Below, piece after piece: positions 35,896 to 37,177 of a stretch of DNA of 64,000 nucleotides. Positions within the stretch are counted from its first letter, which is position 1; every line of letters begins with the position of its first letter. The position numbers were made by a program, and so were the translations under genes. The notes beneath the pieces are model-generated. The model worked only from the letters and a program-made list of their open reading frames with translations. It made no database searches and was not told where the DNA came from. Source of the DNA: Escherichia coli (GTDB lineage Bacteria; Pseudomonadota; Gammaproteobacteria; Enterobacterales; Enterobacteriaceae); NCBI RefSeq assembly GCF_013122565.1, contig NZ_CP053258.1, one strand, 5' to 3'.

Positions 35896-36268
35896 GAAGG
35901 GCCGCGAAAGCGGCCCTTCAGATTATTGGCAAAGTGCGCGTTGTTCATGTCGGATGCGGCGTGAACGCCTTATCCGACCTACAAGATCGTGCAAATTCAA
36001 TAGATTGCAGGAAGTATGTTGGCCTGATAAGCGTAGCGCATCAGGCAGTTTTGCCTTTGCCATCAGTCTGAAGGGCCGCGAAAGCGGCCCTTCAGATTAT
36101 TAGCAAAGTGCGCGTTGTTCATGTCGGATGCGGCGTGAACGCCTTATCCGACCTACAAGATCTTGCAAATTCAATAGATTGCAGGAAGTATGTAGGCCTG
36201 ATAAGCGTAGCGCATCAGGCAGTTTTGCCTTTGCCATCACTCTCAAGGGCCGCAAATGCGGTCCTTTT
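35896..36268. repeat. Tandem duplication (two copies of about 174 bp plus a partial third) of a hairpin-plus-REP unit
   Basis: The unit GAAGGGCCGCGAAAGCGGCCCTTCAGATTATT...GCCTGATAAGCGTAGCGCATCAGGCAGTTTTGCCTTTGCCATCA occurs twice with three mismatches. A third hairpin copy, CAAGGGCCGCAAATGCGGTCCTTTTTT, has a T-run and looks like the tktA terminator. Confidence 0.65.
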
Positions 36269-37177
36269 TTATTTAGTTGAGATAAACGGAACGGTGCTGC
36301 CGGGGATCATGGTATCGGGCAGTTTACCGTCCCAACGTTCGGCAGTGGTGAGGGCTACAAGTCCGGGATTATCCCGCAGAGCTTCACCGCGCAGGCGGAT
36401 TGCTTCTGCTTCAGCCGCACTTTTTAAACGAATAGTTTCAGCCTCTGCCGCGCCTCTTACGCGAATAGTTTCCGCTTCTGCTTTGGCTGCCGCCAGTTTA
36501 CTGTCTGCTTCTGCCTGGGCCTGAGTTACCGCTATTTGCGCCTGGATTTTCTCTGTTTCCAGATTTTGCTTACGCGTGGCAATGGCGACTTCTGCTTTCA
36601 TTCGGTCTTCAATCGACTTTTCATAAGCGTCAGAAAAATCAATATTTTCAATCTGGACCCCGTCAATTACCACTGGCCCAACAACCGCTTTGCGCATCGC
36701 ATTTTGCAGATCCTGAACCAGTTTTGTACGATCCTGTACGGCGCTGATGGCGGTATATTGGCCGAAAACGTTCTCCAGTTGAGTTGGCAACTGACGGACA
36801 ATCAGACGATCTTTTAATGCTTCAATGGTGTTGTAGGTGGTATAAACCGCGCCTGCTTCTGAAGGTTTAATGTGGAAGCTGACTGATACTGTCATTTGTG
36901 CCGGTTGCTGGTCGCGGCTGTAGGCCTGTAATCCCTGATAGACCACAGCCTGATTACGCGTGGAAATTTTCTCCACGCTTTCCATAAACGGGATCTTAAA
37001 ACCCAGACCCGGCTCGGCAACTTTTACGATTTTTCCGTAGCGCAGCAAAATGCCGCGTTCACCTTCATTAACGGTGTAATACGAGAGAAATGGCAGCACA
37101 ACCACGGCAAGCACGCCAATGGCGATAGCAATAGATTTTTGAGGGCGAAATGAGGTTATAGAAACAGGTGCTTTCAT
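36269..37177 (-). CDS. SPFH/band-7 (prohibitin/HflC-like) membrane protein (accessory)
   Basis: 302-aa ORF with an N-terminal TM helix (IAIAIGVLAVVVLPFL), an SPFH core with the PGLGFKIPF motif, and a C-terminal Ala/Glu-rich coiled-coil repeat (AEAETIRVRGAAEAETIRLKSAAEAEAIRLRG). It is not QmcA, HflK or HflC by sequence. Confidence 0.6.
   Translation of the reverse strand: MKAPVSITSFRPQKSIAIAIGVLAVVVLPFLSYYTVNEGERGILLRYGKIVKVAEPGLGFKIPFMESVEKISTRNQAVVYQGLQAYSRDQQPAQMTVSVSFHIKPSEAGAVYTTYNTIEALKDRLIVRQLPTQLENVFGQYTAISAVQDRTKLVQDLQNAMRKAVVGPVVIDGVQIENIDFSDAYEKSIEDRMKAEVAIATRKQNLETEKIQAQIAVTQAQAEADSKLAAAKAEAETIRVRGAAEAETIRLKSAAEAEAIRLRGEALRDNPGLVALTTAERWDGKLPDTMIPGSTVPFISTK

Follow-up and report, generated by a model that had tools for sequence, protein, structure and literature searches.

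A stand-alone SPFH gene between tktA and cmtB of Escherichia coli probably belongs to one of two old haplotypes and lies beside a copy-variable BIME-1 array

Is the SPFH gene that lies between tktA and cmtB in an Escherichia coli chromosome a recent arrival, delivered at the repeat that adjoins its 3′ end, or an old resident of this locus? The question arises from a 64,000-nt stretch of E. coli DNA (RefSeq assembly GCF_013122565.1, contig NZ_CP053258.1), the whole of which is called the window here and whose positions are used throughout. An initial annotation had placed a 302-aa SPFH protein in the tktA–cmtB spacer and had proposed that the tandemly duplicated unit beside it, a hairpin plus a repetitive extragenic palindrome (REP), might mark the recombination junction that delivered the gene. 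Our analysis points to another history, in which the gene is probably part of one of two old tktA–cmtB haplotypes. It is monocistronic and HflC/prohibitin-like and shares the hairpin of the tktA terminator, and the adjacent array of bacterial interspersed mosaic elements of class 1 (BIME-1), which varies in copy number, is probably unrelated to its arrival. The features on which this reading turns are as follows.

36269–37177, minus strand: intact SPFH/Band_7 gene of 302 aa (open reading frame list, Pfam; the RefSeq orthologue is named 'prohibitin family protein')
35878–37476, no strand: segment without a close K-12 counterpart, 1,599 nt against 235 nt in K-12 (alignment; local alignment with shuffle control)
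37178–37288, minus strand: 5′ region of the SPFH gene with the ribosome-binding site AAGGAAG and a presumed promoter (alignments)
37289–37554, plus strand: cmtB upstream region, collinear with K-12 and with the tktA–cmtB spacer of Citrobacter and Salmonella
33885–35876, plus strand: tktA (transketolase 1), annotated as tkt in matching E. coli records and convergent with the SPFH gene (open reading frame list)
37555–37998, plus strand: cmtB (open reading frame list)

K-12 MG1655 has only 313 nt between tktA and cmtB and no gene annotated there, as the initial annotation had stated. That annotation had also called for an alignment of the spacer with K-12, which located the repeat at the left edge of the indel and revealed nothing repeat-like at the right. 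The last 78 nt before cmtB (37477–37554) are 98.8% identical to K-12 and the flanking genes 96–98% identical, whereas the cmtB-distal ~190 nt that border the indel in the window share just 48.9% identity with K-12, a level no higher than that seen between genera. No SPFH remnant was detected in K-12, since local alignment of its 235 nt with the 300 nt upstream of the gene in carriers scored 23, against 19.7 ± 2.7 for shuffled sequences. Alignment with the SPFH–cmtB intergenic region revealed that the whole cmtB upstream region is present in carriers too, and what is specific to carriers is therefore a module of the array, the gene and ~110 nt of 5′ region, set between the terminator of tktA and the sequence upstream of cmtB. 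The SPFH-less form is not peculiar to K-12: a tktA–cmtB spacer of 308–353 nt without the gene was found in nine Citrobacter species, in Salmonella enterica subsp. arizonae and diarizonae and in Raoultella, and likewise in Lelliottia, Silvania, Superficieibacter, Huaxiibacter and Escherichia sp. E1V33. Within the cmtB upstream region (37289–37476), the short motifs ATCACAAAT, TTGAC, CATTGTT and AATTG[CA]TTTCA are kept across genera, while the rest is saturated with change; these motifs are candidate regulatory sites of the cryptic cmt operon.

Could the absence of the gene from K-12-type strains simply reflect a recent deletion that arose in E. coli? The gene is present in every sampled Escherichia species but sp. 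E1V33, and in Kluyvera and Klebsiella it lies beside tktA or epd, so that its presence looks ancestral for the genus. A recent deletion, however, would leave the flank nearly identical, and a flank of 48.9% identity next to sequences of 98.8% and 96–98% makes a simple recent deletion in the K-12 lineage unlikely. K-12 retains no remnant of the gene, and its spacer matches those of Citrobacter, Salmonella and Raoultella in length and motif order. We therefore consider this explanation unlikely and favor the reading of the K-12 and carrier forms as old diverged haplotypes, which were either maintained within Escherichia or of which one was introgressed.

The distribution of the gene fits an old haplotype. 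A 2-kb query was matched with 80% coverage or more in 1,814 of 5,426 complete E. coli genomes, which encode a 'prohibitin family protein' between tkt and cmtB; a 701-nt query running from the end of tktA across the array to the gene's 3′ end (E <= 1e-60) retrieved 1,829, about one third either way. Sequence type 131 (ST131) is among the carriers; K-12, BL21 and O157:H7 are without the gene. E. albertii has the gene at the same tktA–cmtB position, and when GTDB species representatives were scanned with cmtB as the anchor, E. whittamii, Escherichia sp. MOD1-EC7003 and the GTDB 'E. coli' representative proved to have it there too. A Kluyvera orthologue (82% identical) sits between tktA and epd-pgk-fbaA, and in Klebsiella spallanzanii the SPFH gene adjoins epd. 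The Escherichia gene has diverged between species roughly as far as its neighbour cmtA: nucleotide identity to E. albertii, for instance, is 88.0% for the SPFH gene versus 89.1% for cmtA. The ratio of nonsynonymous to synonymous divergence (dN/dS) is 0.005–0.08 within Escherichia, with dS reaching 0.69 to E. albertii, and the gene is thus under strong purifying selection. Neighbour-like divergence, purifying selection and synteny across Escherichia species together indicate that the gene is an old chromosomal resident of Escherichia, not a recent arrival.

What, then, is the repeat against which the gene ends? Tandem Repeats Finder reported a tandem repeat at 35896–36266 with a 174-nt period, 2.1 copies and 95% matches (score 686), well beyond what chance would give. 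Its two full units (35896–36069 and 36070–36243) are 98% identical, with 4 differences, and a repeat search found the 22-nt hairpin AAGGGCCGCGAAAGCGGCCCTT in three copies at 174-nt spacing. The third hairpin ends the array 2 nt short of the SPFH stop codon, which bears out the earlier description of the 3′ end as abutting a duplicated hairpin-plus-REP unit. A unit is made up of the hairpin, ~30 nt of flank, a y REP, a 35-nt linker with TGCAAATTCAATAGATTGCAG, an inverted z1 REP and ~24 nt of flank, as listed below.

35897–35918, no strand: hairpin copy 1, AAGGGCCGCGAAAGCGGCCCTT, the stem-loop assigned to the tktA terminator, without a T run (repeat search; Kluyvera homology)
35896–36069, plus strand: repeat unit 1, 174 nt, hairpin and BIME-1 (Tandem Repeats Finder, repeat search)
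35949–35982: y REP of unit 1
35983–36017: L linker of unit 1
36018–36046: inverted z1 REP of unit 1
36070–36243, plus strand: repeat unit 2, 174 nt, with 4 differences from unit 1
36071–36092: hairpin of unit 2
36123–36156: y REP of unit 2
36157–36191: L linker of unit 2
36192–36220: z1 REP of unit 2
36245–36266, plus strand: hairpin copy 3, AAGGGCCGCAAATGCGGTCCTT and then TTTTTATTT, the sole copy with a T run (terminator scan, repeat search)

Judged by homology, the 22-nt hairpin is the tktA terminator, because it corresponds to the tktA-side hairpins of Kluyvera and Superficieibacter. In Kluyvera a single homologous hairpin, AAAGGGCCGCGTAAGCGGCCTTTTT, lies between the convergent tktA and SPFH gene, as in the zero-copy alleles of E. 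coli, and in Superficieibacter GGGCCGCGAAAGCGGCCC is the tktA terminator upstream of cmtB. Hairpin 3 alone scored as a terminator in the terminator scan and is likely the effective one. Because the other two hairpins have no T run, transcription of tktA probably continues through the REP array, and such read-through may stabilize the 3′ end of the transcripts.

The REPs in the window were typed against the y and z1 consensus sequences, and the linker motif TGCAAATTCAATAGATTGCAG is present in both units with 1 mismatch each. The succession of y REP, L linker and inverted z1 REP at 35949–36046 and again at 36123–36220 has the composition of BIME-1, in which z1 and y REPs are separated by a long conserved L linker, often with a site for integration host factor (IHF) (Ton-Hoang et al., PMC3333891). 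The array thus resembles BIME-1, or the repetitive IHF-binding palindromic element (RIP), in its y REP, ~35-nt L linker with an IHF-type site and inverted z1 REP (PMC3333891), and in its matches to REP-derived Rfam families. Rfam ES036/CssrF (RF02751) matched 35983–36025 and 36157–36199 on the plus strand (47 and 50 bits, gathering threshold 37.6), and the REP-derived naRNA4 matched the array below threshold. The ES036 matches fall on the L linkers, so this 'small RNA' family corresponds to the BIME-1 L linker, a repeat element. BIME-1 elements are described as single copies (PMC3333891), in contrast to the two copies in the window and the three in MOD1-EC7003; they stand in tandem here because the repeated unit also takes in the flanking tktA terminator hairpin. 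The array is accordingly a local segmental duplication, unlike a BIME-2-type amplification. We also considered a mobile miniature inverted-repeat transposable element with hairpin ends and rejected it: a 56-nt query of hairpin and flank matched at full length only in ~1,380 genomes with the unit at the tktA locus, and elsewhere in genomes it was matched by the 30-nt BIME flank alone.

Copy-number variation of REP and BIME sequences is textbook knowledge, and the array follows it. In an even sample of 60 of the 1,829 carriers retrieved with the 701-nt query, the unit was absent from 15, single in 40 and double in 5; alignment gave N25, TUM13936 and HSP60 as examples with 0, 1 and 2 copies. Escherichia sp. 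MOD1-EC7003 has 3.1 copies, which resemble one another more than those of other strains and so argue for independent amplification, and units of the two-copy alleles of the window and HSP60 differ pairwise at 3–6 positions, which is compatible with one origin of these alleles as well as with two. Since carriers have 0, 1, 2 or 3 copies, the array changes in copy number independently of the SPFH gene. The BIME-1 sits between two tktA terminator hairpins, a 22-nt direct repeat through which the 174-nt unit could expand and contract, presumably by unequal recombination or replication slippage; REP-transposase activity may be an alternative source of copy change. Near-identical tandem units can be mis-assembled, which would make the second 174-nt unit an artefact. 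With 4 differences between the copies, two copies in 5 of the 60 sampled complete carriers and three in one Escherichia species, we find this hardly credible, and conclude that the duplication is a real, recurrent polymorphism.

These properties bear directly on the proposal that the gene belongs to a recently acquired island and that the hairpin-REP duplication is the recombination junction that delivered it. The repeat does lie at most 20 nt from the left end of the segment without a close K-12 counterpart, and members of the SPFH family are carried by plasmids, integrative and conjugative elements (ICEs) and phages. REP/BIME sites are, moreover, known targets of insertion sequences (PMC3333891), and IS1 and IS200C are found in this spacer elsewhere. 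However, about 25% of carriers, N25 among them, have no BIME at all; the Kluyvera gene is accompanied by a single hairpin; and the repeat, which occurs in 0–3 copies among carriers, falls entirely within the polymorphic segment, against its left boundary, with no match or repeat-like sequence at the right one. The hairpin itself is attributed to the tktA terminator and its arm is locus-specific. Synteny across Escherichia species and Kluyvera, cmtA-like divergence, purifying selection and dS of up to 0.69 do not suit a recent delivery either, so that a junction of this kind is very improbable and the reading of an old haplotype with an independently varying array is preferred. The insertions themselves, IS1A in strain 14EC033 and IS200C in XJ34 and XJ6-3, lie in the tkt–SPFH–cmtB stretch and are consistent with REP/BIME regions being targets of insertion sequences.

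The gene product was then compared with known SPFH proteins. The 302-aa open reading frame reported in the tktA–cmtB gap was confirmed as an SPFH protein by a Pfam Band_7/SPFH match (PF01145) over residues 35–210 (E 5.6e-32, 111.6 bits, curated cut-off 23.6) that covers the full profile (positions 2–176). A sequence search of the PDB returned HflC (2e-13), HflK (1e-10), QmcA (8.5e-7) and prohibitin (3e-5) in that order, and BLASTP against the K-12 proteins gave E 6e-16 for HflC (24% identity), 4e-9 for HflK and 1.5e-7 for QmcA (25% identity), with no significant match to YqiK. The equivalog models for HflC and HflK scored far below their cut-offs (NCBIfam TIGR01932, 60.7 bits, cut-off 134.4; TIGR01933, 37.4 bits, cut-off 159.4). 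On sequence grounds, the protein is a distinct fifth paralogue beside the four SPFH proteins of K-12.

The absence of an NfeD/YbbJ-type partner was likewise substantiated: the small open reading frames flanking the gene had no Pfam match, and tblastn with K-12 YbbJ and YqiJ returned nothing across the whole window. Homologues stand alone without NfeD in 8 of the 8 other contexts inspected. This is not the peculiarity it had been taken for. NfeD partners are restricted to SPFH1, SPFH2 and SPFH5 and are missing from HflK/C (SPFH3) and the prokaryotic prohibitins (SPFH4) (Hinderhofer et al. 2009, PMC2636767; PMC10434171). As prohibitin-type and HflK/C proteins normally have none, a gene without an NfeD neighbour or co-operonic NfeD gene is what would be expected here.

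HflC and HflK, the SPFH3 proteins of E. coli that modulate FtsH, are the best matches in both sequence and fold. They have in common with the protein an SPFH domain followed by a long helix, the lack of an NfeD partner and, as predicted by analogy, a periplasmic orientation; the N-terminal signal anchor of HflC and the EGERG motif after it also align. They differ in that identity reaches only 24%, with NCBIfam scores far below cut-off, that HflK is longer, and that hflK and hflC are paired downstream of hfq-hflX, whereas the SPFH gene is single between tktA and cmtB. The protein also resembles the SPFH4 prokaryotic prohibitins, which have ~290–300 aa, a single N-terminal transmembrane helix and no NfeD partner (PMC2636767), and of which no bacterial member had been studied according to Hinderhofer et al. 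2009 (PMC2636767). It bears the RefSeq name 'prohibitin family protein' and has fold matches to PHB2 and PHB1 at ~2e-15, in contrast to its weak sequence similarity to human prohibitins (E 3e-5 to 6e-4). An assignment to SPFH4 would draw on this name and the PHB1/2 fold matches and is best regarded as putative. QmcA–YbbJ and YqiK–YqiJ (SPFH1/SPFH2) have the SPFH fold and form cages, and the QmcA–YbbJ cryo-electron microscopy structure 8z5g was among the fold matches. These proteins, however, have a cytoplasmic orientation and share operons with NfeD genes (PMC10434171), unlike the SPFH gene, which has no NfeD gene within 64 kb, and their sequence similarity to it is weak (QmcA, E 1.5e-7) or not significant (YqiK).

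An AlphaFold2 model (predicted local distance difference test score 82.8) comprised a transmembrane helix at ~12–32, an SPFH domain at 33–181 and an 87-residue helix at 183–269. This order of N-terminal anchor, SPFH domain and long C-terminal coiled-coil helix is the architecture of a cage protomer. Foldseek searches with the model matched full-length protomers, best HflC (1.5e-17), followed by PHB2 and PHB1 (~2e-15) and then erlin, stomatin and QmcA, with HflK also matched; all of these proteins form ring or cage assemblies. The segment before the transmembrane helix contains 3 K/R and zero D/E residues, and the transmembrane segment with the EGERG motif behind it aligns with the HflC signal anchor. 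HflK/C face the periplasm, and QmcA and YqiK the cytoplasm (PMC10434171). The charge pattern, the anchor alignment and the orientation of HflK/C suggest to us that the SPFH domain is periplasmic and that the protein forms a homo-oligomeric cage: the N-terminus would probably be in the cytoplasm and the SPFH domain in the periplasm, as in HflC, and the long C-terminal helix would probably mediate assembly into a ring- or cage-like homo-oligomer enclosing a patch of the inner membrane. If HflK/C and mitochondrial prohibitins are a guide, such a patch may serve membrane-protein quality control; FtsH as the client of the cage is only a guess.

The modelled coiled coil contains a repeat of its own, which is encoded as follows.

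36383–36481, minus strand: three tandem 33-nt (11-aa) units in the coiled coil, AEAETIRVRGA / AEAETIRLKSA / AEAEAIRLRGE (protein alignment)

Most relatives (~291 aa) are without the middle 11-aa unit, so the window protein has one unit more, and in one E. albertii allele (280 aa) this stretch is reduced by 22 residues. Helix length thus varies in steps of ~11 residues, and perhaps cage size varies with it.

Homologues of the protein on mobile elements (48–74% identity) are all stand-alone genes. They include jumbo-phage proteins of 48–53% identity in phages of ~355 kb (GAP32, fHe-Yen9-04, Serratia BF and Erwinia pEa_SNUABM), plasmid-borne proteins of Enterobacter and Kosakonia (71–74%), and 60–72% homologues in a likely mobile region of a K. 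oxytoca chromosome and on a Salmonella IncFII plasmid beside type IV secretion genes; PHROG 200 was matched at E 4e-63. These mobile copies have no direct bearing on the chromosomal gene of Escherichia. Might the gene then be an anti-phage defence or exclusion factor, acting as a single-gene membrane system? The phage and plasmid homologues and the PHROG match would suit such a role, as would the patchy presence of the gene in 33% of strains. Yet no PADLOC-DB 2.0 family matched at E <= 0.01, the gene lies among housekeeping genes and not in a defence island, and the protein has no effector domain or partner, so an association with phage defence was not borne out. Typical defence genes turn over quickly; the chromosomal Escherichia copy has instead kept its place, with a very low dN/dS across the time span of a genus, which speaks against a fast-evolving role in defence. 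A defence function therefore seems very doubtful to us, and we retain the reading of an old, conserved haplotype gene.

Several points weigh against that reading and should be set beside it. The homologues on plasmids, ICEs and jumbo phages show that lateral movement of the family is real. The term 'old resident' holds for Escherichia; the ancestral state is ambiguous, as in many genera no SPFH gene separates tktA from cmtB, and the spacers of these genera are collinear with that of K-12, with the same terminator position and conserved motifs. As for the protein, its sequence is nearer to HflC/K than to eukaryotic prohibitins, which makes 'prohibitin' an annotation label, and the topology, oligomeric state and client proposed above are predictions. 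A promoter scan upstream of the gene found no sigma-70 consensus, and expression is presumed; the 5′ region (37178–37288) is conserved among Escherichia carriers in alignments and has motifs in common with Kluyvera. A literature search yielded no paper on this protein in E. coli.

Around the SPFH gene, the gene order in the window is speB, a DUF1266 gene, loiP (minus), tktA (plus), the SPFH gene (minus), cmtB (plus), cmtA, yggP and yggF. Over the core genes of a 20-kb stretch (41000–61000), top identity among the 5,426 complete genomes was 98.3%, and with no better match than this the lineage of the strain is poorly represented among complete genomes. The tktA and cmtA sequences (34877–39125) are only 95–97% identical to those of K-12 and of the further E. 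coli strains examined. The alleles of cmtB are unusually diverged within Escherichia: that of the window (37555–37998) is 98% identical at the nucleotide level to K-12, 88.5% to the GTDB 'E. coli' representative SCPM-O-B-8794 and 87–89% to E. albertii and MOD1-EC7003. The cmtB allele classes do not track the presence or absence of the SPFH gene, so the locus is a recombination mosaic. In the speB–loiP gap, the DUF1266 gene (31201–32763, plus strand) encodes a 520-aa protein with a lipoprotein-like N-terminus (Pfam E 6e-30); it was found at this site in 211 of the 5,426 complete genomes and is thus far rarer than the SPFH gene.

Studies of SPFH proteins in E. coli have been framed around four K-12 genes (PMC10434171), and about a third of natural isolates, ST131 included, carry a fifth that is strongly conserved. 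One can go further and suppose that this fifth protein forms its own periplasm-facing homo-oligomeric cage, whose client is other than FtsH or which competes with HflK/C for FtsH, and that presence and absence persist in a deeply diverged haplotype block, common to several Escherichia species, through balancing or niche-specific selection and not drift; this extension is speculative, and we would not expect all of it to hold. The gene is already known by annotation in thousands of genomes, and as it is ordinary, accessory, annotated and conserved, the finding matters little beyond bookkeeping. What the locus does offer is a clean, old two-haplotype indel, the SPFH-less form of which matches Citrobacter and Salmonella and the SPFH-bearing form E. 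albertii and Kluyvera, and with it a useful teaching case that 'absent from K-12' should not be equated with 'recently acquired'.

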